Source: Minisyncoccota bacterium
GTDB lineage: Bacteria; Patescibacteriota; Minisyncoccia; Phycocordibacterales; UBA9973
DNA: 64,000 bases
NCBI GenBank assembly: GCA_041657885.1
Contig: JBBABB010000001.1
Coordinates: forward strand, 129,094-193,093
Direction of reading: 5' to 3'
Shown: positions 1 through 61,115 of the stretch, in pieces
Layout: the number at the start of each line of letters is the position of its first letter
Numbering within the stretch: position 1 is the stretch's first letter
Notes under the pieces: model-generated
What the model was told of the DNA's origin: nothing
What the model saw: the letters and a program-made list of their open reading frames with translations, nothing else
Databases searched by the model: none
Program-made: the position numbers and the translations under genes

Positions 1-1
1 T

Positions 2-640
2 TTGGTTGACCGAAAAGTTATTCATTTGCCTGAGTTTAAAACAATCGTGCTTGATGAGGCAGATAGAATGCTCGATATGGGCTTCGTAAATGATATGCGA
101 TTTATTATGGCCAACATGGCGCCGAATCGTCAGACATTGTTATTTTCAGCAACCATCACAAGTGAGATTGATAAATTGATTAAAGAATTTTTGACTAACC
201 CTGAAAAGATTTCGGTTAAAACCGGAGACACCGCGCGAAATGTTGAGCAAGATATTGTGCGTGTAAGAAGTGGTCAAGATAAAATTGGTTCACTTGAATG
301 TTTGCTTTCTAAAAAAGAATTTTCAAAAGTTCTGATTTTTGGGCGTACCAAACACGGTGTTGAAAAACTTTGTCAGATATTAGTTAAAAGTGGTTTTAAA
401 GCAGAATCTATTCATGGTGATAAAAATCAAGGAAGACGTCAAAGCGCGCTGAAAGCTTTTCGTGAAAACCATAGTCAAATACTTGTTGCGACTGATGTCG
501 CAGCACGAGGTCTCGATATTCCAAATGTAACTCATGTTATCAATTTTGATATTCCGGCTACTTATGAGGATTATGTTCATCGAATCGGTCGAACCGGCCG
601 TGCCAATCAAGTTGGAGTAGCACTTACGTTTGTCAGTTAA
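2..640 (+). CDS. DEAD-box ATP-dependent RNA helicase, C-terminal part (5' end outside window)
   Basis: Translation shows motif II VLDEADRMLDMGF, SAT (LFSAT) and motif VI HRIGRTGR. Confidence 0.85.
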   Translation: MVDRKVIHLPEFKTIVLDEADRMLDMGFVNDMRFIMANMAPNRQTLLFSATITSEIDKLIKEFLTNPEKISVKTGDTARNVEQDIVRVRSGQDKIGSLECLLSKKEFSKVLIFGRTKHGVEKLCQILVKSGFKAESIHGDKNQGRRQSALKAFRENHSQILVATDVAARGLDIPNVTHVINFDIPATYEDYVHRIGRTGRANQVGVALTFVS

Positions 641-744
641 AACTAAATTTAAAAATGGCTCAAAAGCCCCTTCAATAAGACTATTCAGAGATACGCCATG
701 ATAAGACTATTTGGAATTTTTTTCCTGTGGTATAATAAAAAGAC

Positions 745-4963: not shown

Positions 4964-5829
4964 TTTTGTCTCAAAAAATCTTCGTAATTAATTTCTTTTT
5001 TACCTTCAGGAGTGACCCTTTTAATGATAAATAGATTATTCTCATATACAGCTTCCTTTATTTTTACTCGTATTTTTTTGTTGTGCTTTGTTACAAAGAA
5101 ATATGTTCCTGGCCAACCGTAAAATGCACGATATTTGTTGTAAATTTTTTTCGGATTACCATCTATATCTATTTCCCCATCTTCTTTATTTATCTTGGAA
5201 CAGTAGGTTGCCTCTTTTTCATCTTGCACTTTAGGAGTGATACTTTTATTTATAATTTTAGGCATAATCTCACAAAGTAAATTTCCCCCCAGATTTATTA
5301 ATTTATTTTTTAAATCTTCTTTTTTTTCATTTATATCTATGGATATTTCTTTCGTGGCTAGTATTGGGCCACTATCTAATTTATATGCCATTTGCTGAAT
5401 ACTTACTCCTGTTCTGCTATCTCCATTTAAAAGTGATGCCTCAAGAGGGGAAGCGCCTCTCCATTTAGGCAGTAAAGAATAGTGAATATTTATTGTTCCT
5501 AGTGTTGGTATATAGATGAGGGCTTCTGGTAAAATTTTTCCATATGCGACAACCACGTAAAGATCTACATTAGTGGATCCACGTGGCAGGTCATCACAGG
5601 ATAGATCAGCAATGAATTCAGGGGTAATTTTTTCTGGTTTAAGGCACTCAATGTTATGTTTTTTTGCCCAGAGAGAAACAGGGCTAGGAGTTAAGTGTAA
5701 ACCTCGCCCAGCTGGTTTATCAGGAGAAGTGATAATAAGCGACGGCATATAGCCATTATTTTTTAATATATCGAGAGTATTACTCGCTATATCCGGAGTT
5801 CCAAAAAATGTAAATTTTAATTTTTCCAT
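4960..5829 (-). CDS. fmt: Methionyl-tRNA formyltransferase
   Basis: MEKLKFTFFGTPDIA...ITSPDKPAGRG...HYSLLPKWRGASP. ATG at 5829 chosen over the upstream TTG. Confidence 0.85.
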   Translation of the reverse strand: MEKLKFTFFGTPDIASNTLDILKNNGYMPSLIITSPDKPAGRGLHLTPSPVSLWAKKHNIECLKPEKITPEFIADLSCDDLPRGSTNVDLYVVVAYGKILPEALIYIPTLGTINIHYSLLPKWRGASPLEASLLNGDSRTGVSIQQMAYKLDSGPILATKEISIDINEKKEDLKNKLINLGGNLLCEIMPKIINKSITPKVQDEKEATYCSKINKEDGEIDIDGNPKKIYNKYRAFYGWPGTYFFVTKHNKKIRVKIKEAVYENNLFIIKRVTPEGKKEINYEDFLRQN

Positions 5830-8395: not shown

Positions 8396-8469
8396 ATTTT
8401 ATCACATAAATAGTATTGACAGGATAGGAAAATATGTGTTGTGTTGAGGTGAATTAAATATATTGTATG

Positions 8470-8587
8470 AGCCAGAGTCTGGAATAGTCCTCTCAGAGGG
8501 TACGAAAATTTTTTGCTAAAAATTTTCTCGGTTCTCGCGCCGTCGCGCTCCAAAGCCCCTCTGATAGGACTATTCCAGACTCTGGCT
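8470..8587. repeat. MITE-like structured repeat (family A, copy 1) with about 30-bp terminal inverted repeats
   Basis: agccagagtctggaatagtcctctcagaggg ... cccctctgataggactattccagactctggct. Internal hairpins (aaaattttttgctaaaaatttt; gcgccgtcgcgc). Shares its core with 25990..26084, 27088..27184 and 61021..61115. Confidence 0.7.
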
Positions 8588-10490: not shown

Positions 10491-10515
10491 CAGATAGGGG
10501 CTTAGCCCCTATCTG
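10491..10515. repeat. REP-like 25-bp perfect palindrome cagataggggcttagcccctatctg (copy 1, upstream of RAYT)
   Basis: Perfect inverted repeat. Copies at 10731..10755 and 11236..11260. Confidence 0.8.
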
Positions 10516-10544
10516 GGGAATTTAACTTGTAGTATAATAAAAAT

Positions 10545-11249
10545 ATGAGCATAAGAAAACAACCTTTAGTAACAGGGGAAATGTATCATATTTACAATCG
10601 CGGGGTAGACAAGCGAGATATTTTTTCAGATAAAAATGACATTTATCGTTTTATTGAAAGTATTAAAGAATTTAATAGAATAGAAAAAATAGACAGTCTT
10701 GCAAATCTAAGAAAAATAAAATCAAATTCTCAGATAGGGGCTAAGCCCCTATCTGAAGGACCGTTAGTAGAGATTATAGGATATTGCCTTAATCCTAACC
10801 ACTTTCATTTTATATTAAGACAGTCAAATGATAATGGAATCACTAAATTTATGCATAAACTTCTAGGGGGATATACATCTTATTTTAATATTAAAAATTC
10901 TAGATCAGGGTCTCTATTTCAAGGAACTTTTAAATCACAAACTATAACTAATGAAGATTATTTTAATAAGTTAATAGGTTATGTTAACAAAAACTATCAA
11001 ATTCACAGTATTCCAGAAAATAAAAATGATTTAGTTTTTTCGGGGGATTATGAATATGAAAATAATAAATTCAATATTATTTCTAAAAAAGAAGGGGAAA
11101 ATATTTTAGAGGTTTTTGGAGGTGTAAAAAAATTTAAAAAACATTGTGATGAAATAGTTTCTATTGTTAGAGAGGAAAGAGGTAAAAAATCTTTACTTGA
11201 AGATGAAGATTTGAATGTAATTATAGAAAGTCTCCCAGATAGGGGCTAA
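10545..11249 (+). CDS. REP-associated tyrosine transposase (RAYT; IS200-like HuH-Y1 transposase, COG1943 family)
   Basis: MYHIYNRGVDKRDIF...NPNHFHFIL (HuH) ...GGYTSYFN...SGSLFQGTFKS...YVNKNYQ matches the Y1_Tnp/RayT pattern. Flanked by REP palindromes. TATAAT 6 nt upstream of the ATG. Confidence 0.8.
   Translation: MSIRKQPLVTGEMYHIYNRGVDKRDIFSDKNDIYRFIESIKEFNRIEKIDSLANLRKIKSNSQIGAKPLSEGPLVEIIGYCLNPNHFHFILRQSNDNGITKFMHKLLGGYTSYFNIKNSRSGSLFQGTFKSQTITNEDYFNKLIGYVNKNYQIHSIPENKNDLVFSGDYEYENNKFNIISKKEGENILEVFGGVKKFKKHCDEIVSIVREERGKKSLLEDEDLNVIIESLPDRG
10731..10755. repeat. REP palindrome copy 2, in frame inside the RAYT ORF (encodes QIGAKPLSE)
   Basis: Same 25-mer (one central base differs), codon-aligned. 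Confidence 0.8.
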
Positions 11250-11260
11250 GCCCCTATCTG
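11236..11260. repeat. REP palindrome copy 3, overlapping the RAYT stop codon (TAA in the palindrome loop)
   Basis: Same 25-mer; the stop codon 11247..11249 lies in its centre. Confidence 0.8.
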
Positions 11261-11310
11261 AGAGATTGGGCGTTTTTGAGAGTTTTACGCTTTGATGTTT
11301 ATAAATTATT

Positions 11311-15208: not shown

Positions 15209-15241
15209 TCAACCATGGTTATTTAAAGTAAAACTAATTTG

Positions 15242-15269
15242 CAATAAATATACAGGGGTGGATTTATTG
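15242..15269. repeat. Palindrome caataaatatacaggggtggatttattg upstream of PaaX-like gene (imperfect copy of 15910..15943)
   Basis: Inverted repeat around a CAGGGG core. Confidence 0.6.
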
Positions 15270-15301
15270 CAAAATAAATTTGTTTATAATAGTATGTAGA
15301 T

Positions 15302-15880
15302 ATGTCTGAAATAGAGAAAGAATTAAGAAAAGAAAGAAAAAAGACAAATATACAAAAAATTATTTTAAGCTCTATTGCTACTGCTGGAATATTAAGTGTT
15401 GCACTTCTGGCACCCAATGCACTTCAAGTATTAAAATCTCTTGGTTTAGATAAAAAATTGAAAAATTTTAGAAATGATACAAATCGTTCACTTTCAAGAC
15501 TCCTATCCTCTGGTTTAGTCGTCTTTATTGAAGAGAATGGGAAAAAATATTTAAAACTTACCGAAAAAGGTAAATTAAAATTAATACGTCTTGAAAAATA
15601 TAATTTTAAATTTAAAAAACCAAGAAAATGGGATAAAAAATGGCGAATAGTGATTTTTGATATTCCTCAAAAAAGAAGATTACAAAGGGATAATTTAAGA
15701 TTCACTTTAAAACAAATTGGATTTATAAAATTACAACATAGTGTTTGGGTTTATCCATATGATTGTGAAGACCTAATTACTTTATTGAAATTAGATTTTA
15801 AAATAGGTAGGGAGATTCTATATATTATTGCTGATAAAATTGAAAATGATAAGATTTTGAAAGAGTGTTTTAAATTATAA
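15302..15880 (+). CDS. PaaX-like winged-helix regulator (paralog of 54462..55007)
   Basis: C-terminal WDKKWRIVIFDIPQKRRLQRDNLRFTLKQIGFIKLQHSVWVYP matches the PaaX_C pattern (WDG.W.LV.F.IPE..R..R..LR..L...GF..L..SVW..P); N-terminal winged-helix-like region. Confidence 0.5.
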   Translation: MSEIEKELRKERKKTNIQKIILSSIATAGILSVALLAPNALQVLKSLGLDKKLKNFRNDTNRSLSRLLSSGLVVFIEENGKKYLKLTEKGKLKLIRLEKYNFKFKKPRKWDKKWRIVIFDIPQKRRLQRDNLRFTLKQIGFIKLQHSVWVYPYDCEDLITLLKLDFKIGREILYIIADKIENDKILKECFKL

Positions 15881-15909: not shown

Positions 15910-15943
15910 TTACAATAAATCCACAGGGGTGGATTTATTGTAA
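15910..15943. repeat. Perfect 14-bp-arm palindrome ttacaataaatcca-cagggg-tggatttattgtaa downstream of PaaX-like gene
   Basis: Inverted repeat seen in the sequence. Confidence 0.7.
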
Positions 15944-16012: not shown

Positions 16013-16021
16013 TGATATAAT
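16013..16021 (+). promoter_or_regulatory. Extended -10 TGATATAAT 6 nt upstream of ATG 16028
   Basis: Motif. Confidence 0.45.
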
Positions 16022-16027
16022 ATATAT

Positions 16028-16555
16028 ATGTTTACTAATCCAGAACAAAATATTTTACATTTAGGACTTACAGAAGGAATGCGTGTAGCAGACTTTGGCG
16101 CAGGGACGGGTTTTTATTCTAAGGCGGCAAGCGCAAAAGTAGGATATACAGGTAAAGTTTATGCCATAGAAGTACAAAAAGATTTAGTGAAAAGGCTTGA
16201 GAGTGAAATAAAAAGTTGGGGTATCTTAAATATAGATTGTATCTGGGGTGATATAGAAAAGAGAAATGGTACAAAAATTTCTGACCAAAGTGTGGATGTA
16301 GTTATTGTGTCCAATGTCTTATTTCAAGCTGAAGACAAGCTTGGGCTTATAGATGAAGCTAAACGTGTTTTAAAGAAAGGCGGTAAGGTTCTTTTGATAG
16401 ATTGGAGTGATTCGTTTGGAGGTATGGGGCCTACAACGGAGAGTGTTGTGACGGAAAGTATGGCAAAAGAATTATTTGAGAAAAGAGGATTTAAATTAGA
16501 AGAAAGTATTTCCACAAGTGCCCATCATTATGGTATAATTTTCAAGTATGAGTAA
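16028..16555 (+). CDS. Class I SAM-dependent methyltransferase
   Basis: VADFGAGTGFYS (motif I), DVVIVSNVL, GGKVLLIDW. Confidence 0.75.
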   Translation: MFTNPEQNILHLGLTEGMRVADFGAGTGFYSKAASAKVGYTGKVYAIEVQKDLVKRLESEIKSWGILNIDCIWGDIEKRNGTKISDQSVDVVIVSNVLFQAEDKLGLIDEAKRVLKKGGKVLLIDWSDSFGGMGPTTESVVTESMAKELFEKRGFKLEESISTSAHHYGIIFKYE

Positions 16556-27029: not shown

Positions 27030-27087
27030 AGTAGTTATTTTATACTAAAAAATCAAAAATTCATAATAAAAAAATAGGGTCGTCCAT

Positions 27088-27184
27088 AAAATAGCTCTTC
27101 TCAAAGGGTACGCAAATTTTTTACTAAAAATTTGCTCGGTTCTCGCTCCGTCGAGCTCCAAAGCCCCTTTGATAAGACTATTTT
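27088..27184. repeat. MITE-like repeat family A, copy 3
   Basis: aaaatagctcttctcaaagggtac...ctcgctccgtcgagctccaaagcccctttgataagactatttt. Confidence 0.7.
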
Positions 27185-37230: not shown

Positions 37231-37347
37231 AATTACAACACAAATTAAAATTTTAGTAGTCGGACTACTAAAATTTATTATTTTACATTTTAAAAAATAT
37301 ATGATATACTACTAATACATTTGAACGCCTTTTGGCGATTTTATTTT

Positions 37348-39219
37348 ATGGAAATTAGAAATATAGCAATAATCGCCCACGTGGACCATGGAAAAACCAC
37401 TTTGACTGACCAGATGATGAAGCAATGCGGAATGGTGAAAGAAGGGGTTACCATGGATTCAAACGCTCTTGAACTTGAGCGTGGTATTACTATATATTCC
37501 AAAAACACTTCAGTAATTTATAAAGGAAAAAAAATAAATATTGTAGATACTCCAGGCCACGCGGACTTCGGTTCTGAAGTTGAGCGTGTTCTTCGCGCGA
37601 TTGATTCTGTGCTTCTACTTGTAGATGCGCAAGAAGGTCCAATGCCTCAAACTCGCTTTGTTTTGAAAAAGTCCCTTGAGTTAGGACTTAAACCGATTGT
37701 TGTAATAAATAAAATAGATAAGCCAGCCTCAAACCCAGCTCGCGTTCATGATGAGATACTTGAACTTTTCTTGGAGCTTGGAGCTACTCAAGAACAAATT
37801 GATTTCAAATATTTATACGCTATAAGTCGCCAAGGAATAGCAAAATTAAAACTTGAAGATGAATCCAAAGATTTAACTCCTTTATTTGATCTAATACTTT
37901 CTGAAGTTAAAGAAGCATCTGTCGATAAAAACGCTCCTTTTCGGGCGCAAGTTTTTAATCTTGGCTATGATAACTTTTTGGGGCGTTTGGCTATCGTTCG
38001 CGCTTATGCTGGGTCTATTAAAACTAGCTCTCAAATTATAGTAAAAGATACTGTTGGTAATTCTCGTAATGCTCGCATTTCTAAAATATTTACTTTCCAG
38101 GGGATAGATAGAAAAGAAGTAAGCGTATTAAATACTGGAGATATCGCTATTATCGCTGGAATTCCCGATGTCTATATTGGAGAAACAATTTGTGATGATA
38201 TAAATACGCAAGCTCTTCCCTCTATTGATATAGATGAACCAACAATTTCCTTAAATTTTTTAGTAAATGATTCTCCTTTTGCAGGTCGTGAAGGTAAGTA
38301 TGTGACGGGTAGACAAATAAGAGAGCGTCTCGAAAAAGAACTTGAAATGAACGTTGGTCTTCGAATCAACTTTGATGTTCCAGATGAAGAATTAGGAAAA
38401 GAAGCCCGCCCGAACGACGCAGTCGGGCAGGGATTTCTTGTCTACGGACGTGGTGAATTACATATTGCAGTACTACTAGAAAATATGCGTCGTGAAGGAT
38501 ATGAGCTCCAAGTTTCTCAGCCCCACGTAATTATAAAACCTGCCCGCCCTCACGAAAGTTCGGGAGCAGGCGGGGAAGAAAAAGTAACTATGTTGGAGCC
38601 GTATGAAGAAGCAACCATTGATGTCAGGAGTGAATTTTCTGGTTCAGTTATAGAAAAATTAACTGCGCGCCGAGGAATTATAACAAATATGCATGAGAAA
38701 GAAGGAATTGTTCGAATGTTGATAGAGATACCCACTCGAGGATTGCTCGGATATCGTGGACAATTTATTGTAGATACTAAAGGTGAAGGAATACTTGCTT
38801 CAAGATTTATTGGATTTAAAAATTATGCAGGAGAAATAAAAAAGCGAGATGTGGGGTCTATGACTTCAATGATTAATGGTAAAGTTGTTGCATTCTCACT
38901 TTGGACTCTACAAGAAAGAGGAACTCTGTATGTAGAGCATGGAGATGAAGTATATGAAGGAATGGTTATTGGAAATGTTATAAAAGGAGATGAATTGACG
39001 GTTAATCCAACAAAAGGGAAACAACTTTCCAATATGCGTTCTTCAGGCACTGATGAAGCAATCAATGTTAAGCCACCATATAAGTTGTCTATTGAGCGAG
39101 GACTTGAGGTTATGGCTGAAGATGAATATCTTGAAATTACACCCCAAAATACTCGCTTACGCAAGAAGCTTCTAACGGAACAAGACCGATCAAAATCAAA
39201 AACAGCTAAAAATAAGTGA
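37348..39219 (+). CDS. typA: Translational GTPase TypA/BipA, carrying a 12-aa in-frame insertion ([12 protein letters not shown])
   Basis: [35 protein letters not shown]. Insertion at 38539..38576 relative to E. coli/B. subtilis BipA. Confidence 0.9.
38539..38576. repeat. GC-rich palindromic element (family E) inserted in frame in typA
   Basis: cctgcccgccctcacgaaagttcgggagcaggcgggga; identical 38-mer at 43646..43683 in mnmA. Confidence 0.8.
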
Positions 39220-42742: not shown

Positions 42743-44083
42743 ATGGTGATTAAAAATAATAAAACAGTATTTATTGGGGTTTCCCCGAATAGAAGAGTAC
42801 TTCCTACGGGGCAGGCAGGCGGAGTTAAGCCTACTGTTTTTGTTGGTGTTTCAGGAGGTGTTGACAGTTCGGTTTCCGCGGCCCTTTTAAAAGAGGCTAC
42901 ACCAAAAAATTTTAAAAAATTTTTTGGTCGCCCGACCCCGAAGGGGTTTAGAGGATACAATGTAGTTGGGGTTTTTATTCGTACTTGGACACCGGATTTT
43001 ATAGAATGTACTTGGAAAAATGAGCGTCGTGATGCTATGCGAGTATGTGCGCATCTTAATATTCCTTTTTTAGAATGTGATGCTGAAAAAGAATATAAAA
43101 AAAGTGTGGTAGATTATATGATTGAAGAATATAAAAAAGGTAATACTCCAAACCCCGATGTAATGTGTAATCGAGAAGTTAAATTTGGAGTGTTTTGGAA
43201 ATTTGCACAATCTCACGGGGCAGATTTTATTGCCACGGGGCACTATGCACGCAAATCTCCCCTCCTTGTGGAGGAGGGGGTAGGGGGTGGTGATCCAAAA
43301 GAATTACCACCTCGCCCTGCGGGCACTCCTCCTCGAAAAGGAGGAGAGGAAATGCATAAATTACTAAAAGGTATTGACTCATCCAAAGACCAAGTTTATT
43401 TTTTGTGGACTTTAACGCAGGAAGATTTGTCTCATATTTTATTTCCCATTGGACATTTAAAAAAGACAGAAGTTCGTAAACTTGCAAAGAAATATAATCT
43501 TCCAACTGCGACGAAAAAAGACAGTCAGGGTATTTGTTTTCTGGGGCTACTTGATATGAAGGATTTCTTGAGACACTATATTAAATCAGAAAAAGGGAAT
43601 GTTTTGCTTGCCCGTCACGATAGTGAATTAGGGAATGAAAAGGGACCTGCCCGCCCTCACGAAAGTTCGGGAGCAGGCGGGGAAATAATTGGAAATCATA
43701 ATGGCGCGGTATTTTTCACTCTTGGAGAAAGACATGGATTTACTCTTAATAAACATTCCGAAAATGATGAACCTTTATATGTAATATCAAAAGATATAAA
43801 AAATAACACCATTACTGTTTCCCCTAGGCCTTGCCTAGGGGAAGAAGACGAACCACATAGGACCGTCCTATGTAATAATGCAAACTGGATTTCAGGTATA
43901 CCAGAAAAAGATAAGGTGTATATAGCTCAAATTCGTTATCATGGAGAGTTTTTAGATTGTAAAGTGGTCGTCACAGGTCAGACCTGTGAAATAACTTTTG
44001 ATAAAAATGTAATTGTTGATAAAGGACAATCAATAGTTATTTATGATGGGGATATTTGCCTAGGGGGTGGTGTGGTAATTTAA
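42743..44083 (+). CDS. mnmA: tRNA-specific 2-thiouridylase MnmA with at least 5 in-frame GC-rich insertions
   Basis: VGVSGGVDSSVSA (PP-loop), NPDVMCN, TGHYAR, KDQVYFL, QGICFLG. 446 aa versus about 360 aa for orthologs. Confidence 0.8.
   Translation: MVIKNNKTVFIGVSPNRRVLPTGQAGGVKPTVFVGVSGGVDSSVSAALLKEATPKNFKKFFGRPTPKGFRGYNVVGVFIRTWTPDFIECTWKNERRDAMRVCAHLNIPFLECDAEKEYKKSVVDYMIEEYKKGNTPNPDVMCNREVKFGVFWKFAQSHGADFIATGHYARKSPLLVEEGVGGGDPKELPPRPAGTPPRKGGEEMHKLLKGIDSSKDQVYFLWTLTQEDLSHILFPIGHLKKTEVRKLAKKYNLPTATKKDSQGICFLGLLDMKDFLRHYIKSEKGNVLLARHDSELGNEKGPARPHESSGAGGEIIGNHNGAVFFTLGERHGFTLNKHSENDEPLYVISKDIKNNTITVSPRPCLGEEDEPHRTVLCNNANWISGIPEKDKVYIAQIRYHGEFLDCKVVVTGQTCEITFDKNVIVDKGQSIVIYDGDICLGGGVVI
43646..43683. 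repeat. Family E element, identical copy inserted in frame in mnmA
   Basis: The same 38-mer as in typA. Confidence 0.8.
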
Positions 44084-53373: not shown

Positions 53374-53652
53374 TTGTACAATTTTAAGAAACTAAAAATG
53401 GAGGGTATTATGAGTCATGAAATTGGAGTTGATATGAGGTCTGATTCTGAAAAACAAACCTCATTTTACAAGGGGATAAAAACAGTGCAAAAAATAAAGT
53501 GTGGCACAAGCGGATGTGAATATGAAAGTTCTTATCGATTCCGCATTTGTCCCCATTGCAAAAAAATCGATAACTTGTATGAAAAACCTACCGCAAAAGA
53601 AGGAGTGTCTGACCCCGAACTTGAGGGATATAATGGGTTCATACACAAATAA
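53374..53652 (+). CDS. Hypothetical zinc-ribbon protein (CxxxxC...CPHC) upstream of grpE
   Basis: KCGTSGCEYE...RICPHCKK four-Cys arrangement. Confidence 0.3.
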   Translation: MYNFKKLKMEGIMSHEIGVDMRSDSEKQTSFYKGIKTVQKIKCGTSGCEYESSYRFRICPHCKKIDNLYEKPTAKEGVSDPELEGYNGFIHK

Positions 53653-53735
53653 CATTTACAGGAGACAATTTCGATGAAAGTGTCTCCTGTTTTTAATTTT
53701 GCAAAATTGCATATTTTTTGTATACTAGTATCAAT

Positions 53736-54368
53736 ATGGATGAAGAAGAAATATCCGCCTCCGCTAAAAGCTACGGCGAGACAAAGGAAAATAAAATTGC
53801 AAATGAAGAAGATGAAACTGGTGAGAATTTTATTGACCTTGATGTTGTTGAGAGTACTGAAGATGGGGAAGAATTACCAGTGAAGGATGTCACAAAAAAA
53901 CTTCGCCAAGAAATAAAGAAACTCCAAAAAGAAAAAGAGGAATATTTGACTGGTTGGCAGAGAGCAAAAGCTGACTATATCAACCTCCAGAAAGAGCTCG
54001 ACCTCGTTCGGGTTAATGTTTCAATTTTAACGAGAGAAAAAATGACAGAAAAATTATTGCCTACCCTTGATAGTTTTGAGATGGCTTTCGCCAATAAAGA
54101 ACACTGGGAGAAAATAGATAAAGATTGGCAAGATGGAATTACTTCTATTTATCAGCAATTTATATCAGGGCTAGCCAATTCTGGAATTGAAAAAATAGAA
54201 GAGGCAGAAATTCCATTTGACCCAAATATTCACCAGTCAATAAGCGTGACTGAGACTAATGATGAATCAAAAAATCACACCGTAGAAAAAATACTCCAAG
54301 TTGGGTACAAAATAGGCGAGCGTGTTATCCGCCCAGCGAAAGTAACAATTTACGATTATAAGAAATAA
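53736..54368 (+). CDS. grpE: Nucleotide exchange factor GrpE
   Basis: C-terminal ...IEEAEIPFDPNIHQSISV...GYKIGERVIRPAKV matches GrpE. ATG at 53736 (TGTATACT 9 nt upstream); the ORF track starts at a TTG. Confidence 0.8.
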   Translation: MDEEEISASAKSYGETKENKIANEEDETGENFIDLDVVESTEDGEELPVKDVTKKLRQEIKKLQKEKEEYLTGWQRAKADYINLQKELDLVRVNVSILTREKMTEKLLPTLDSFEMAFANKEHWEKIDKDWQDGITSIYQQFISGLANSGIEKIEEAEIPFDPNIHQSISVTETNDESKNHTVEKILQVGYKIGERVIRPAKVTIYDYKK

Positions 54369-54370
54369 TA

Positions 54371-54455
54371 GTCGTTCCGCAGGATTATTAAAATTATTCG
54401 CGTTTTACCCAGAGTACTGGGTCCTACGCGACTCATAATTTAAACAATCCTGCTT
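54371..54455. repeat. About 90-bp multi-stem structured repeat (family D, copy 1) 3' of grpE
   Basis: gtcgttccgcaggattattaaaattattcgcgttttacccagagtactgggtcctacgcgactc...aatcctgc; near-identical copy at 57162..57248. Confidence 0.7.
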
Positions 54456-54461
54456 CACTAA

Positions 54462-55007
54462 TTATTTACACGATGAGAGAAATTCTTTTTTGGTGGCTTC
54501 GTCAATTTTATCCGTTACAATAATCATCATTTCTGATGTGAGGTTTAAATCTTTTTTAATATTTATAAAAAGATGCTCATATGGATATATTGAAACCCAA
54601 ACAGAATTTTTTATACAAATAAATCCAGCTTTTTTAAGAAGATATCGAAGAGCTTCGCGTTCGCTTTTTCTTTCTTCAGGAAGGTCAAGAATGATTATTC
54701 TCCAATAGCCGTCCCAATTATTAGAAACAAGAGCTGTATCATCATCTAAAGCATTATTATTAAGACGCTTTTTACCCTCTTCTGATAGTCGGAAATATGG
54801 TTGGTAGTCCGACTGGAAACACTCTACAAGCCCGTCTGACGCTAGATTCTTTATAGAACGGGATATTGCATATTCTGGCCTATTTTTGCTTGTATAGACG
54901 CCTTTTATTGTATTTTCAACCTCTTTTTTAAGAGAATCGAAAGAAACTGCCTTTTTTCTGGCTAGGGTTTTGAAAATTGCCTTCTGGATTGATGATTTTT
55001 TCTCCAT
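54462..55007 (-). CDS. PaaX-like winged-helix regulator paralog, antisense between grpE and dnaK
   Basis: WDGYWRIIILDLPEERKSEREALRYLLKKAGFICIKNSVWVSIYP (PaaX_C pattern). Start at MEKKS (55007), with TGATATAAT 7 nt upstream on the minus strand. Confidence 0.5.
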   Translation of the reverse strand: MEKKSSIQKAIFKTLARKKAVSFDSLKKEVENTIKGVYTSKNRPEYAISRSIKNLASDGLVECFQSDYQPYFRLSEEGKKRLNNNALDDDTALVSNNWDGYWRIIILDLPEERKSEREALRYLLKKAGFICIKNSVWVSIYPYEHLFINIKKDLNLTSEMMIIVTDKIDEATKKEFLSSCK

Positions 55008-55219
55008 GTTGACAATTATATCACTATAATATATATTACACAATAATTTCGTGGTCACGAAATACTTGTCAAAAATAAAAGATGAGTATATAATTGGTTT
55101 AGATTCTCCTCTTGAGGAGTACCCGTAGGGGGAGGTGGAGTATTCAAATGCATCCACCCCGGCTTTCAGCCACCCCTCAAGAGGGGAATTAATACAAAAT
55201 TATTAATAATTAAAAATAG

Positions 55220-55259: not shown

Positions 55260-57161
55260 ATGGCAAAAATCATAGGTATAGATTTGGGTACAACAAATAG
55301 TGCGGTCGCAATAATTGAAGGTGGACAACCAAAAATTATAGAAAATATAGAAGGTGGTCGTACAACACCATCAGTAGTTGCTATTACCAAGAATGGTGAT
55401 CGAATGGTAGGACTTTTAGCAAAACGCCAAGCAGTCACAAATCCAGAAAATACTGTTTATGGGATTAAAAGATTTGTTGGTCATTTATATGATGACCCAG
55501 AAATAAAAAAAGATGAAAAAACTATTCCGTATAAAATTCAAAAAGGTTCAACTGGAGGTGTGGAAGTAAAAATGGGTGATCAATGGTTTCGTCCAGAAGA
55601 AATTTCAGCAAAAATTTTAGGAAAAATAAAAGCCGATGTTGAAGCAAAGCTCGGAGAGAAAATTACAGAAGCAGTTATCACTGTTCCTGCTTATTTTAAT
55701 GATGCTCAAAGAAAAGCAACCAAAGATGCTGGAATTATTGCCGGGCTGAGTGTTATGCGTATTATCAATGAACCTACTGCTGCCGCTCTTGCTTACGGGT
55801 TTAATAATAAAAAAAATGAAAAAATAGCTGTGTACGACTTTGGAGGTGGAACTTTTGATATTTCTGTTCTTGAAGTTGGAGATGATGTTATTGAAGTGAA
55901 ATCTACTGATGGCGACTCGCACATGGGTGGTGAAGATATTGACCAGAAAGTTGTAAAATGGATTGCTGATGAATATAAAAAAGAATCAGGTATTGATGTT
56001 ACAAAAGATATGCTTGCTCTACAGAGATTGAAAGAGGCGGCAGAAAAGACAAAGCATGAACTTTCCACAACCATGGAATCAGAAATAAATATTCCATTTA
56101 TTACTTCAGACGCCTCAGGTCCTAAGCATTTACTTTTGAAAATGACTAGAGCAACTCTTGAATCATTAGCCGAAGAATATATCACTCGCTCAATCGAAAT
56201 AACTAAAAGGGCATTTGAAGCTTCGCCATTTAAGATGAATGAAATTAATGAACTAATTCTTGTTGGCGGACAAACCAGAATGCCAGCTATATACGAAGCT
56301 GTTAAGAAATTGTTTGGACGTGAACCAAATCGTTCAATCAATCCAGATGAAGTTGTCGCACTCGGTGCTGCAGTTCAAGCAGGGGTTCTTCAAGGAGATG
56401 TTCGTGACGTTCTACTTCTTGATGTTATTCCATTATCTCTTGGAATTGAAACGTTAGGTGGAGTTGCTACTAAATTAGTTGACCGCAATACCACTATTCC
56501 AAGCTCAAAATCGCAAACATTTTCTACTGCGGCCGATAATCAAACATCTGTAGAAATTCATATTACTCAAGGTGAACGCCCAATGGCCTCTGATAACAAA
56601 TCTCTTGGAAGATTTATATTAGATGGAATTCCTCCAGCACCACGTGGCATGCCTCAAATTGAAGTTACTTTTGATGTAGATGCCAATGGAATACTTAATG
56701 TTAAGGCGAAAGATAAGGCCTCTGGCAAAGAACAATCTATTCGTATTGAAGCAAGTTCAGGGCTTACTGAAGCAGATATAAAGAAAATGCGTGATGAAGC
56801 GGAAGCACATGCTGGAGAGGACTTAAAGAAAAAAGAATTGGCAGATGAGAAAAATACAGCTGAGATGATAATCTTTACAGCCGAGAAATCATTAAAAGAA
56901 TATGGTGATAAAGTTCCAGCAGAAACAAAAACATTAATTGAAGAAAAGTTAGGAGCTGTTAGAACTGCAAAAGAAGGGTCTGATATAGGAGCAATCAAAA
57001 CTGCTATTGAAAACTTAACGACAGAACTTTCTAAAATTGGTGAAATAATGAATAAAGCAAATCAAGAAGCAAGTGCAAATGCAAATCAAAATCCAACCCC
57101 AGAAGAAAAAGGGGAAGAAATAAAAGATGCGGAAGTAAAAGAAGGGGAACAAAATAAATAG
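55260..57161 (+). CDS. dnaK: Chaperone DnaK (Hsp70)
   Basis: [40 protein letters not shown]-like C-terminus. Confidence 0.95.
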
Positions 57162-57248
57162 AGTCGTTTCGCAGGATTATTAAAATTATTCGCGCTTTAC
57201 CCAGAGTACTGGGGCCTACGCGACTCATAATTTCAACAAATCCTGCTC
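57162..57248. repeat. Family D structured repeat copy 2, between dnaK and dnaJ
   Basis: About 90% identical to 54371..54455. Confidence 0.7.
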
Positions 57249-57277: not shown

Positions 57278-58366
57278 ATGCCTAAAAATTATTACGAAAC
57301 ACTTGGAGTAAATAAAAATGCTTCGAAAGATGAGATAAAAAAAGCATTTCATAAACAAGCTCATAAATATCATCCTGATAAAAATAAGGGTGATGATAAA
57401 AAGTTCAAGGAAGTAAATGAAGCTTACCAAGTTCTTTCTGATGACCAAAAACGCTCTAGATATGATCAATTCGGCTCTGCTGATGGGCCCTCCTTCGCCG
57501 GAGGCTACGGCGGGGCGCAGCAAGGATTTGGAGGTTTTGACTTCTCAGGGTTCCAAAATGGCCAAAGTTACGATATGGGAGACCTTGGTGATATCTTTGG
57601 AGATTTTTTCGGAGGTGGTATGGGGCGTGGAACTAAAAATTCTCGTCGCGGGAGAGATATTCAAACAGAGATTGATTTAACTTTTGAAGAATCTATTTTT
57701 GGAGTAAATCGCAGAGTTTCAATTACAAAACAAGCAACTTGTGATATTTGTAAAGGAACTGGTGGAAAAGTTGGAACAAAAATGAATACTTGTAGGACTT
57801 GTAATGGACAAGGACAGATTCGTGAGATTCGCCGTTCTATTTTAGGGTCATTTTCTACGACGAAAATTTGTGACATATGTCTTGGAACTGGAAAAATTCC
57901 ATCGGAAAAATGTTCAAATTGTCATGGAGCTGGTGTATATAGGAAACAAAAAGAAATAGAATTAAATATTCCAGCTGGTATTAATAATGGAGAAATGCTT
58001 AAAATGTCTGGTGCTGGGGAGGATATCCAAGGAGGGCAATCTGGCGATTTATATATAAAAGTAAAAGTCAAACCACACCCATTATACAAACGCGACGGAC
58101 TCAATTTAACTATGGATTTACAGATTAAACTCACTGATGCCCTCCTTGGTATGACTTATAATTTAAGAATATTAGAAGGGAATACAATAGAAATTAAAAT
58201 TCCAGAAGGAATAAATCACAATGAATTACTTCGTGTGCGTGGCAAAGGTGTGCCATCTAGTCGTGGACGAGGAGATATAATTCTAAGAATAAAAGTGAAG
58301 ATGCCATTAAAACTTTCTCGTAAATCAAAAGAAATAATTGAAGAACTCAAGAAGGAGGGTGTATAA
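57278..58366 (+). CDS. dnaJ: Chaperone DnaJ
   Basis: J-domain YYETLGV...HPD, G/F-rich region, four CxxCxGxG repeats. Confidence 0.9.
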   Translation: MPKNYYETLGVNKNASKDEIKKAFHKQAHKYHPDKNKGDDKKFKEVNEAYQVLSDDQKRSRYDQFGSADGPSFAGGYGGAQQGFGGFDFSGFQNGQSYDMGDLGDIFGDFFGGGMGRGTKNSRRGRDIQTEIDLTFEESIFGVNRRVSITKQATCDICKGTGGKVGTKMNTCRTCNGQGQIREIRRSILGSFSTTKICDICLGTGKIPSEKCSNCHGAGVYRKQKEIELNIPAGINNGEMLKMSGAGEDIQGGQSGDLYIKVKVKPHPLYKRDGLNLTMDLQIKLTDALLGMTYNLRILEGNTIEIKIPEGINHNELLRVRGKGVPSSRGRGDIILRIKVKMPLKLSRKSKEIIEELKKEGV

Positions 58367-59895: not shown

Positions 59896-59972
59896 ATAAT
59901 TAATAATTAATAATTAATAATTAATAATTAATAATTAATAATTAATAATTAATAATTAATAATTAATAATTA
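59896..59972. repeat. Heptanucleotide microsatellite (ataatta)x11 in the intergenic region
   Basis: Perfect tandem 7-mer repeats. Confidence 0.9.
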
Positions 59973-59998
59973 AGAATTAAAGCGAAACAAATTATTTT

Positions 59999-61015
59999 AT
60001 GAATACAAATTTAAACACATTAGAATTTATTCTAAAAAATTATAAGAACTTCAATGCTCGCGCAACGAAAGACGCGATGATTTCATATTGGCGTCATATT
60101 GAAAAAGGAGGCAAAATGTTTTGGGCTATGGGAGGAGCCATGTCTTCAGCTCAGCTTGGGATTACTCTTGCTCCAGCAATCAGGAATGGATTAATTTCAG
60201 GAATGTCTGTGACTGGGGCTAACCTTGAGGAGTCATTGTTCCGTCTCGTTGCCCACAAGAGCTACAAAGACTTTCCTGATTATAGATATTTTACAAAAGA
60301 AGATGATACAAAGATTTTAGAAGACCGTATGCGACGTGTGACAGATACAAGTATTCCTGAAGACGAAGCATTTCGTGTTGTTGAAAAACAAATTGTTCCT
60401 ACATGGAAAAAAGCTACAGTAGATGGGACAAGAAAATTTTGGCATGAATACTTTTATGAACTTATCCAATCAATTGATAAGAGTAAACACGAAGGAAGAG
60501 CAGATGAATGTTGGTTGCTTGCTGCAGCAGAGAAAAATATTCCAATAGTGGTACCTGGTTATGAGGACTCAACATTTGGAAATATTTTTGCTTCTTATGT
60601 AAAGACCGGTGAATGTAGTGCAAATATTGCTAAATCGGGTGTTGAATACATGGTGGCATGGTACGATCAGTATCAAGATTTGTCTAAGGATAAAGGAGTT
60701 GGACTTTTTCAAATTGGTGGAGGAATTGCGGGTGATTTTCCAATTTGTGTTGTTCCTTCTATAAAATATGATTTAAAAAAAGAAGTAAAACCATGGGCTT
60801 ATTTCTGCCAGATTTCAGATTCTACAACTTCTTATGGTTCATATTCCGGAGCAACCCCAAATGAAAAAATTACTTGGGATAAGCTTACGAAAGACACTCC
60901 GATGTTCGTCATTGAATCAGATGCTACTATTGTTGCCCCACTTATACTTACGGCACTTCTTGAGTGTAAAGCAAATCCAGGTGGAGCTAATAAATTAATA
61001 GAACAAATGGGTTAG
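59999..61015 (+). CDS. Deoxyhypusine synthase-like protein (possible homospermidine synthase)
   Basis: FWAMGGAMSSAQLG...GMSVTGANLEESLF resembles the DHS family. Confidence 0.55.
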   Translation: MNTNLNTLEFILKNYKNFNARATKDAMISYWRHIEKGGKMFWAMGGAMSSAQLGITLAPAIRNGLISGMSVTGANLEESLFRLVAHKSYKDFPDYRYFTKEDDTKILEDRMRRVTDTSIPEDEAFRVVEKQIVPTWKKATVDGTRKFWHEYFYELIQSIDKSKHEGRADECWLLAAAEKNIPIVVPGYEDSTFGNIFASYVKTGECSANIAKSGVEYMVAWYDQYQDLSKDKGVGLFQIGGGIAGDFPICVVPSIKYDLKKEVKPWAYFCQISDSTTSYGSYSGATPNEKITWDKLTKDTPMFVIESDATIVAPLILTALLECKANPGGANKLIEQMG

Positions 61016-61020
61016 GTTTG

Positions 61021-61115
61021 AAATAGCTTTTCTCAGAGGGTACACCAATTTCTTGGTAGAAATTCGTTCAGTGTTCGCTCCGTCGAGCTCACAAGCCCCT
61101 CTGATAAAACTATTT
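61021..61115. repeat. MITE-like repeat family A, copy 4
   Basis: aaatagcttttctcagagggtac...gctccgtcgagctcacaagcccctctgataaaactattt. Confidence 0.7.

Follow-up and report, generated by a model that had tools for sequence, protein, structure and literature searches.

A 64,000-nt stretch of the genome of a Minisyncoccota bacterium (contig JBBABB010000001.1, positions 129,094 to 193,093 of the forward strand; hereafter the window) carries, divergently oriented from the chaperone gene dnaK, a gene encoding a shortened member of the PaaX family of regulators, here called regulator A. This protein is probably an autoregulated repressor of dnaK-dnaJ and is a candidate heat-shock chaperone regulator, predicted to act through a 30-bp palindrome between the two genes (the candidate operator; Table 1). 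The regulator A gene, its fold, its invariant linkage to dnaK and the conservation of the operator are directly established.

The window is AT-rich (34% G+C), and at this locus the mechanically delimited open reading frame (ORF) extends from 54462 to 55157. The biological start is ATG 55007, because the 181-aa product is 100% identical in length and sequence to a protein (P0001) from a Candidatus Paceibacterota metagenome-assembled genome and close homologues are all 180-185 aa long. A preliminary description of this stretch, made from the sequence alone, had placed an antisense PaaX-like gene between grpE and dnaK; a minus-strand ORF is indeed found there, although it ends at 55007 and not at 55157 or 55200. 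A second, 192-aa protein of the same type (paralog B) is encoded elsewhere in the window.

Regulator A matches Pfam PF20803 (PaaX_M, the central Cas2-like domain of PaaX) with E 9e-21 and 74.2 bits (cut-off 24). Matches to the PaaX equivalog TIGR02277 (36.7 bits; cut-off 264.55) and to cas2 TIGR01573 (14.4 bits, below the 24.5 cut-off) are weak, and the Pfam scan at E <= 0.1 returned, in addition to PaaX_M, only sub-threshold BRCA-2_helical, Linker_histone and TrmB and no HrcA. In both window proteins the same scan gave no match to PF07848, the N-terminal winged helix of PaaX, and none to PF08223, its C-terminal inducer-binding domain; the chains, of 181 and 192 aa, both end directly behind the Cas2-like domain. 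An AlphaFold (AF2) model of regulator A, built on a 57-sequence alignment (mean predicted local distance difference test score, pLDDT, 80.7), opens with three helices and a wing of two strands (residues 5-74). A connecting helix and a linker of poor definition (86-94) then lead to a ferredoxin-like beta-alpha-beta-beta-alpha-beta-alpha domain (102-180). The top Foldseek match of this model in the PDB is E. coli PaaX (8a39; E 1.4e-5, 177 columns aligned), followed by the PaaX-family structures 3l09 and 3kfw and then by many stand-alone winged-helix regulators. Searching the PDB by sequence alone gave marginal matches (3kfw, E 0.012; 8a39, E 0.08), and the fold search was needed to reveal the relationship. 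Across the regulator A family, columns of the Cas2-like domain have a mean identity of 0.90 vs 0.69 for those of the winged helix-turn-helix (wHTH). The Asp that ends the first strand of the Cas2-like domain (D-x-P motif) is nearly invariant.

From these matches and the model, regulator A is likely to be a PaaX-family transcription factor of minimal build, in which a winged-helix DNA-binding domain is joined to a Cas2-like domain. Like paralog B, it keeps the DNA-binding and dimerisation parts of PaaX but not the ligand domain, since both window proteins stop where the Cas2-like domain ends. The description of both proteins as PaaX-like winged-helix proteins is thus borne out by PaaX_M in each and by the model of regulator A. 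The motif W-D-x-x-W-R...D-x-P...L-R...G-F...S-V-W-V that they were said to share is present in both, but it lies in the central Cas2-like domain of PaaX and not in the C-terminal domain, which is absent.

For comparison with other genomes, a scan with one genome per GTDB species gave 197 relatives, of which the best 80 (51-86% identity to regulator A) were used; their taxonomic range can be given only roughly (class Paceibacteria / Nomurabacteria-type lineages), several species records being mislabelled or generic. Among these 80, dnaK lies upstream of and divergent from the regulator gene in every one of the 75 loci whose upstream flank reaches 700 nt or more, with a median gap of 231 nt (range 100-1381), and the DnaK proteins are 70-92% identical. 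The position of grpE varies. Of 71 loci, 38 have it convergent and no more than 400 nt away and 21 have it at a greater distance; in the other 12 it is missing from the flank. The invariant partner of regulator A is therefore dnaK, not grpE. Three homologues (68-77% identity) share the order rpsI, grpE, regulator (opposite strand), dnaK, dnaJ, and the divergence from dnaK is likewise seen in L001-L004, L102 and L126, the last two being metagenome contigs that had not been selected for it. In a distant relative (L143; 31% identity), obtained by a profile search across 1.8 billion cluster representatives, the regulator gene is divergent from a grpE-dnaK operon, with a similar operator followed by -35/-10 boxes, so the linkage to chaperone operons survives a changed gene order. 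The same search returned 3073 clusters (50% identity) at E <= 1e-3 and only 17 at E <= 1e-30, which makes the dnaK-linked clade a narrow, highly conserved branch within a large family of ~190-aa proteins. The preliminary description had made its proposal depend on a DNA-binding fold and on synteny with chaperone genes in relatives; for regulator A a PaaX fold and a divergent dnaK (75/75) were found. dnaJ is probably co-transcribed with dnaK, judging from its ORF and the gene order in relatives, and the start of dnaK itself is ATG 55260, not TTG 55230.

Alignment of the divergent intergenic regions revealed that almost all loci have, directly upstream of the regulator, a palindrome of the general pattern ACAAnnnTTTnGnG-nn-CnCnAAAnnnTTGT. 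An anchored search recovered it in 77 of 85 sources, and across 64 distinct instances the columns ACAA, TTT, G.G, C.C, AAA and TTGT vary hardly or not at all. With a position weight matrix (PWM; reporting threshold 12) the window site scores 46.9, the sole other match being the same site on the opposite strand (18.6), and the degenerate pattern occurs once in the 64-kb window vs 0.01 times expected in shuffles. The PWM scan thus gives a single site in the window and none upstream of grpE. Further Paceibacteria contigs, 437 kb in all and retrieved for another purpose, contain the operator only in L126 and L102, both dnaK-regulator loci.

The possibility that the palindrome acts as an RNA hairpin was also considered. 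Folded as RNA it is weak (-7.3 kcal/mol, z -2.3), and its most variable symmetric pair (Y in the left arm, R in the right) is complementary in 28 of 64 instances (Fisher p 0.45), with no compensatory covariation. On these two results the hairpin was rejected; the palindrome fits a DNA site that a protein recognises, some of its positions being degenerate, better than a structured RNA. Rfam searches of the locus at E <= 10 gave chance-level matches only, and the operator corresponds to no described RNA family.

Back-to-back promoters are predicted on either side of the operator, all of them from matches to the sigma-70 consensus (Table 1). On the dnaK side, among 68 distinct relatives, the -35 box TTGTCA is found in 62, the 17-nt spacer in 57 and a -10 box with at least five of six matches in 67. 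The regulator-side -10, sought at 16-18 nt spacing, is less uniformly conserved (6/6 matches in 27 of the 68, 5/6 in nine). In the window this box lies only 7 nt before the ATG, which suggests that the regulator A mRNA is leaderless or nearly so. TTGACA...TATAAT-like strings resembling the possible second dnaK-directed promoter occur in many relatives; in the window that promoter would place the transcription start inside the operator palindrome. As a separate observation, a TATAAT-like box 6-7 nt before the ATG, with no visible Shine-Dalgarno sequence, is found at both regulator genes and at a methyltransferase gene at 16028 (55015..55007, 15290..15302 and 16014..16028), suggesting that leaderless mRNAs may be frequent in this organism.

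The arrangement, one palindromic site overlapping core elements of both predicted divergent promoters and conserved across species, is that expected of an autoregulated divergent repressor. The site could instead serve activation of dnaK and of the regulator gene itself, as its centre lies ~47 bp upstream of both predicted starts (~55101 on the plus strand and ~55007 on the minus strand), a position used by some activators. This is unlikely: both core promoters are near consensus (11/12), so that an activator is not needed, and the palindrome arms overlap the -35 hexamers. HrcA and HspR, which are linked to dnaK and have palindromic sites, are repressors. PaaX, the characterised member of the family, is likewise a repressor, which competes with RNA polymerase (PMC9493321).

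From this arrangement we infer DNA binding, repression and the inducing signal as follows. A dimer of regulator A would bind the 30-bp palindrome, the outer arms of which coincide with the -35 boxes of the promoters for dnaK (probably with dnaJ) and for the regulator. The bound dimer would exclude RNA polymerase and turn both promoters off, as PaaX does at its own promoters. Because both core promoters are near consensus, expression without regulator A would be high by default and dnaK would be induced by release of repression, which argues for a repressor. Stress would then relieve the repression.

HspR of Streptomyces, Helicobacter and Campylobacter, a repressor genetically linked to the dnaK operon, acts at an inverted repeat, regulates its own expression and has a small regulon; it is the model for feedback in which DnaK serves as co-repressor. 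The preferred signal for regulator A would be of this kind, free DnaK keeping the repressor active until unfolded proteins titrate DnaK away. It is preferred because regulator A has no ligand domain, its visible regulon consists of dnaK and its own gene, and conservation of its Cas2-like domain is unusually high. A repressor that is itself heat-labile would be the second choice, close behind. Membership of the PaaX family could also point to a ligand-responsive protein coupling dnaK to a small metabolite (e.g. acyl-CoA or a nucleotide) and not to folding stress, and a ligand pocket could explain why the Cas2-like domain is so highly conserved. That reading is improbable, given that the C-terminal domain credited with inducer binding in PaaX is missing, that no metabolic genes are linked to regulator A and that dnaK is its sole conserved neighbour.

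Several points weigh against a repressor of this type. The promoters are known as consensus matches only, and the operator centre near -47 could in principle suit an activator. The second promoter-like site at 55009..55037 complicates the picture. In one relative (L062, 3901..3950) a GC-rich repeat, described below, has inserted directly behind the operator, at the place expected for the dnaK -10; the main dnaK promoter must differ there, so that at least one relative uses its promoters differently. A single regulated operon is visible in the 64 kb of this genome and the short flanks of others, and regulator A may not be the main heat-shock regulator. The sensing step is pure inference and the weakest of the scheme.

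In PaaX a wHTH domain and a dimerisation motif are followed by a C-terminal domain of five helices to which inducer binding is ascribed; the protein acts as a repressor through competition with RNA polymerase at long palindromes, its operator being TGATTC-N27-GAATCA (PMC9493321). Regulator A resembles PaaX of E. coli W (PDB 8a39; PF07848/PF20803/PF08223; TIGR02277) in having an N-terminal winged helix followed by the central Cas2-like domain, which is the dimerisation motif in PaaX. Long, widely spaced palindromes overlapping promoters, exclusion of RNA polymerase and autoregulation, as described for PaaX (PMC9493321), are predicted for regulator A. The differences are considerable: the window proteins have 181-192 aa vs 316 aa in PaaX and lack the five-helix domain, they score 37-40 bits with TIGR02277 vs a cut-off of 264.55, the operator is of the ACAAnnnTTTnGnG-nn-CnCnAAAnnnTTGT type and unlike that of PaaX, and no paa genes lie nearby, the neighbours being dnaK/grpE or unrelated genes and the predicted target dnaK. 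Regulator A therefore belongs to the PaaX_M superfamily but is not a PaaX orthologue by C-terminal domain, equivalog score or paa context.

With HspR, regulator A has in common a dedicated regulator linked to dnaK, an inverted-repeat site at the promoter, a small visible regulon and, as predicted here, autoregulation. HspR is a member of the MerR family, usually encoded by the last gene of the dnaK operon, and its HAIR consensus is CTTGAGT-N7-ACTCAAG; by contrast, regulator A has a PaaX-type fold, its gene is divergent from dnaK, and its operator does not match HAIR. The likeness to HrcA/CIRCE lies in a regulator gene next to grpE-dnaK (in L143, in the slot just upstream of grpE) and a palindrome on a sigma-70-type promoter, but regulator A comes from an unrelated protein family (Pfam) and is divergent rather than encoded by the first gene of the operon. 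CIRCE (TTAGCACTC-N9-GAGTGCTAA) was not found in the 64-kb window with up to three mismatches allowed, and there is no hrcA at the locus. Regulator A is not Cas2, HrcA or HspR; functionally it resembles HspR and HrcA and structurally a truncated PaaX.

More tentatively, and with less assurance than for the repressor itself, the shortened PaaX protein might be a dedicated heat-shock repressor of Paceibacteria in the role of HrcA or HspR, and thus represent a new family of chaperone-gene repressors built of a winged helix and a Cas2-fold domain, with the near-invariant Cas2-like domain as sensor (a DnaK client or an intrinsic thermometer). If so, one more family would stand beside the chaperone repressors HrcA, HspR, CtsR and RheA, and a Cas2-fold domain would be at work in a transcription factor outside phenylacetate catabolism. 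The wider family, with thousands of ~190-aa members each having its own long palindrome, would be a major unrecognised class of transcription factors in reduced genomes. Almost nothing is known of gene regulation in the Candidate Phyla Radiation (CPR), whose members have tiny genomes with few recognisable regulators and have rarely been cultured, and no link of PaaX-like proteins to dnaK or to the CPR was found in open-access papers or preprints. The invariant dnaK link, the defined 30-bp operator and the two predicted promoters form a circuit that is testable in vitro without cultivation.

Between the regulator gene and dnaK lies a second palindromic sequence, which the preliminary description had reported as GC-rich inverted elements at 55105..55195 in the upstream region of the regulator. 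Both strings are present (ctcctcttgaggag at 55106..55119 and cccctcaagagggg at 55173..55186), but they are mutually complementary and close one ~87-nt structure (-60.6 kcal/mol, z -6.3), so that they are the two ends of a single element and not separate palindromes. The proposal that these repeats are the operators of the regulator, forming a chaperone control module with other repeat families, has in its favour that they are real, lie between regulator and dnaK, fold strongly and recur before dnaK or grpE in a few relatives, near-identical copies being found in the dnaK leader of L084 and L062 and in the rpsI-grpE gap of L082 and L064. It is nevertheless most improbable. The element is missing from the dnaK leaders of most of the ~80 relatives, varies in position among loci and lies downstream of the predicted dnaK -10, within the transcribed leader. 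A metagenome scan with its 26-nt core gave 52 stretches (L085-L136) with unrelated contexts; of 40 distinct copies that could be assessed, 16 are located within open frames 271-763 codons long. The element is found in frame and without a stop in uvrB, a uvrD-like helicase gene, tgt, a ksgA-like methyltransferase gene and others, where it reads ...NSPLEEYPKGEVD...STPSRKRATPQEGN..., and 14 of the 16 in-gene copies share frame and orientation and read NSPLEEYPKGEVD...TPQEG.

Because of the dispersed contexts and the in-frame insertions in genes, this element is a dispersed mobile palindromic repeat, similar to the Rickettsia palindromic elements (RPE), and not an operator; the conserved element of the region is the palindrome at 55040..55069. 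A conserved leader RNA of dnaK/grpE, suggested by five copies before these genes with conserved stems and variable loops, is ruled out by the diverse metagenome contexts and the in-frame insertions. Rfam at gathering thresholds identified only three tRNAs in the whole window and no family for this element, nor did the search of the locus at E <= 10. Like RPE, it is a short (~87-100 nt) dispersed palindromic repeat found both between genes and in frame within conserved genes, but it differs in sequence and phylum and is GC-rich in an AT-rich genome. No description of in-frame palindromic elements in the CPR was found in open-access papers or preprints, and such a repeat in housekeeping genes may be relevant to genome evolution and to the tolerance of proteins to insertions. 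In L122, at ~5520..5570, tgt carries, besides the main repeat element, a second GC-rich in-frame stretch, read VPSPLGRAEGGAG, that may be another inserted element.

Paralog B was correctly located by the preliminary description; it is 29% identical to regulator A over 178 residues (E 7e-23), and no third paralog was found in the window by tblastn. Its scores are 39.6 bits with TIGR02277 (cut-off 264.55), 23.7 with TIGR01573 (24.5) and 17.3 with PF09827 (23.8), and in its AF2 model the recognition helix, wing and Cas2-like domain are confident and residues 4-59 are not. The CAGGGG-centred palindromes said to bracket the gene are real (two copies vs none expected in shuffles). Palindromes are found both upstream and downstream of the gene in six of seven species, with the downstream copy in all seven; they differ among species, and the two copies match within a species (TTGCAATTATTACGCAGGGGCGTAATTATTGCAA in L137, AGCAATAATAAGGAAGCGGTCGCTTCTTTATTATTGCT in L141, GGAATCAAATCAGCGCGACCGCGTTTATTTGATTCC in L139). 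The suggestion that they are operators gains support from this bracket of co-varying sequence. Since the upstream palindrome overlaps or abuts a -35/-10 pair that lies 6-7 nt before the ATG, paralog B is probably a sister regulator that autoregulates. The downstream palindrome, which on the minus strand meets a simple terminator pattern, could serve looping, a roadblock or terminator, or control of the next gene.

The neighbours of paralog B are variable, changing beyond ~79% identity, with none conserved beyond close relatives and no chaperone link in the neighbourhoods compared. Paralog B is therefore outside any chaperone module, contrary to the linkage that had been suggested for it. A B-type palindrome (TTTACTATTTTTATGCTATAGCATTATTATAGTAAA) was found in L102 (9066..9102) directly after the stop codon of the dnaK-linked A-type regulator gene, so B-type sites occur away from B genes, and they might connect the two regulators.

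Homologues of paralog B occur widely in the CPR, frequently under the labels 'Cas2' or 'PaaX'. 'Cas2' is the name that several databases give to members of the family, and many family genes carry the annotation 'CRISPR-associated endonuclease Cas2' or 'PaaX', neither of which fits. The likeness to Cas2 lies in the ferredoxin-like fold of the C-terminal domain, the conserved Asp after its first strand and weak sequence matches, whereas in the window proteins this domain is fused to a winged helix, and they score under the Cas2 cut-offs; no CRISPR array was found in the window and no cas genes in the neighbourhoods seen (window and relatives). The Cas2-like domain could be an active nuclease or toxin-like module, or a palindrome-bracketed gene of the paralog B type a small mobile unit, with the adjacency to dnaK incidental. 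The near-threshold TIGR01573 score of paralog B, the nearly invariant Asp of the D-x-P motif and the hairpin-forming palindromes around gene B are in keeping with such an origin, but it is very unlikely: the window has no cas1, the genes are single-copy with local synteny conserved at 79% identity, the operator of regulator A lies exactly on promoter boxes in ~70 species, and adjacency to dnaK survives the rearrangement in L143. A predicted transcription factor remains the preferred reading of regulator A.

Table 1 Features of the dnaK-regulator A locus and of the paralog B locus in the window.
Feature	Position	Strand	Basis or remarks
Regulator A, shortened PaaX-family protein, 181 aa	54462..55007	-	ORF, start codon, PaaX_M match, AF2 model
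Regulator A winged helix	residues ~1-85		AF2 model, HHH-EE, pLDDT ~80
Regulator A Cas2-like PaaX_M domain	residues ~98-180		Pfam and AF2 model, beta-alpha-beta-beta-alpha-beta fold
Candidate operator, 30-bp palindrome ACAATAATTTCGTG-GT-CACGAAATACTTGT	55040..55069		flanks conserved to 55036..55075
Predicted dnaK promoter	55066..55094	+	-35 TTGTCA 55066..55071 (in right operator arm), 17-nt spacer, -10 TATAAT 55089..55094; consensus scan 11/12
Predicted regulator A promoter	55015..55043	-	-35 TTGTGT 55043..55038 (overlaps left operator arm), 17-nt spacer, -10 TATAAT 55020..55015; read from sequence
Possible second dnaK-directed promoter, TTGACA-17-TATATT	55009..55037	+	consensus scan 11/12
dnaK, predicted target	55260..57161	+	ORF
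dnaJ	57278..58366	+	ORF; dnaK-dnaJ order found in relatives
grpE, convergent with regulator A	53718..54368	+	Pfam GrpE E 7e-35
GC-rich palindromic repeat, 5' end of predicted dnaK leader, outside regulatory module	55103..55189	+	fold, dispersed copies
78-nt long-hairpin repeat, directly after grpE stop, between convergent grpE and regulator A	54370..54447		second copy 57162..57239, directly after dnaK stop
Paralog B, 192-aa shortened PaaX-family protein	15302..15880	+	PaaX_M E 2e-21, 76.1 bits (cut-off 24)
Paralog B upstream palindrome (TTGCAATAAATATACAGGGGTGGATTTATTGCAA)	15239..15272		right arm TTGCAA can serve as -35 box
Paralog B downstream palindrome (TTACAATAAATCCACAGGGGTGGATTTATTGTAA)	15910..15943		hairpin -24 kcal/mol

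The other repeat families of the window, of which the preliminary description had counted a 32-nt motif and the family D repeats towards a chaperone module, share no sequence with the operator. The two copies of the 78-nt long-hairpin repeat are 95% identical, and a third follows dnaK in L059 (1864..1951); they fold strongly (-34.5, -41.1 and -32.2 kcal/mol; z -5 to -8). They may be terminators or attenuators or another inserted repeat, and look like the latter. A 32-nt unit forming a perfect hairpin (CAGATAGGGGCTNAGCCCCTATCTG) occurs three times within 800 bp (10491..10522, 10731..10762 and 11236..11267), one copy lying inside ORF 10545..11249; it is probably the '32-nt motif' assigned earlier to the module, and has no sequence in common with the dnaK operator.

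Between rpsI and grpE, a 92-aa ORF (53374..53652) encodes a zinc-ribbon-like CxxC...CxxC motif and matches no Pfam family above threshold; the corresponding slot of L004 contains a 103-aa ORF. Two identical 40-nt GC-rich palindromes (ACCTGCCCGCCCTCACGAAAGTTCGGGAGCAGGCGGGGAA; 38538..38577 and 43645..43684) lie within ORFs 37321..39219 and 42743..44083, suggesting that this genome has another family of repeats inserted in frame. An intergenic repeat of ~120 nt is present in three copies (8456..8575, 27064..27183 and 60996..61115) with 73-77% identity and a common end, GCTCnAAAGCCCCTnTGATAAGACTATT, along with a partial fourth at 658..685, and a perfect tandem array of 12 copies of the heptamer ATAATTA occupies 59896..59980.

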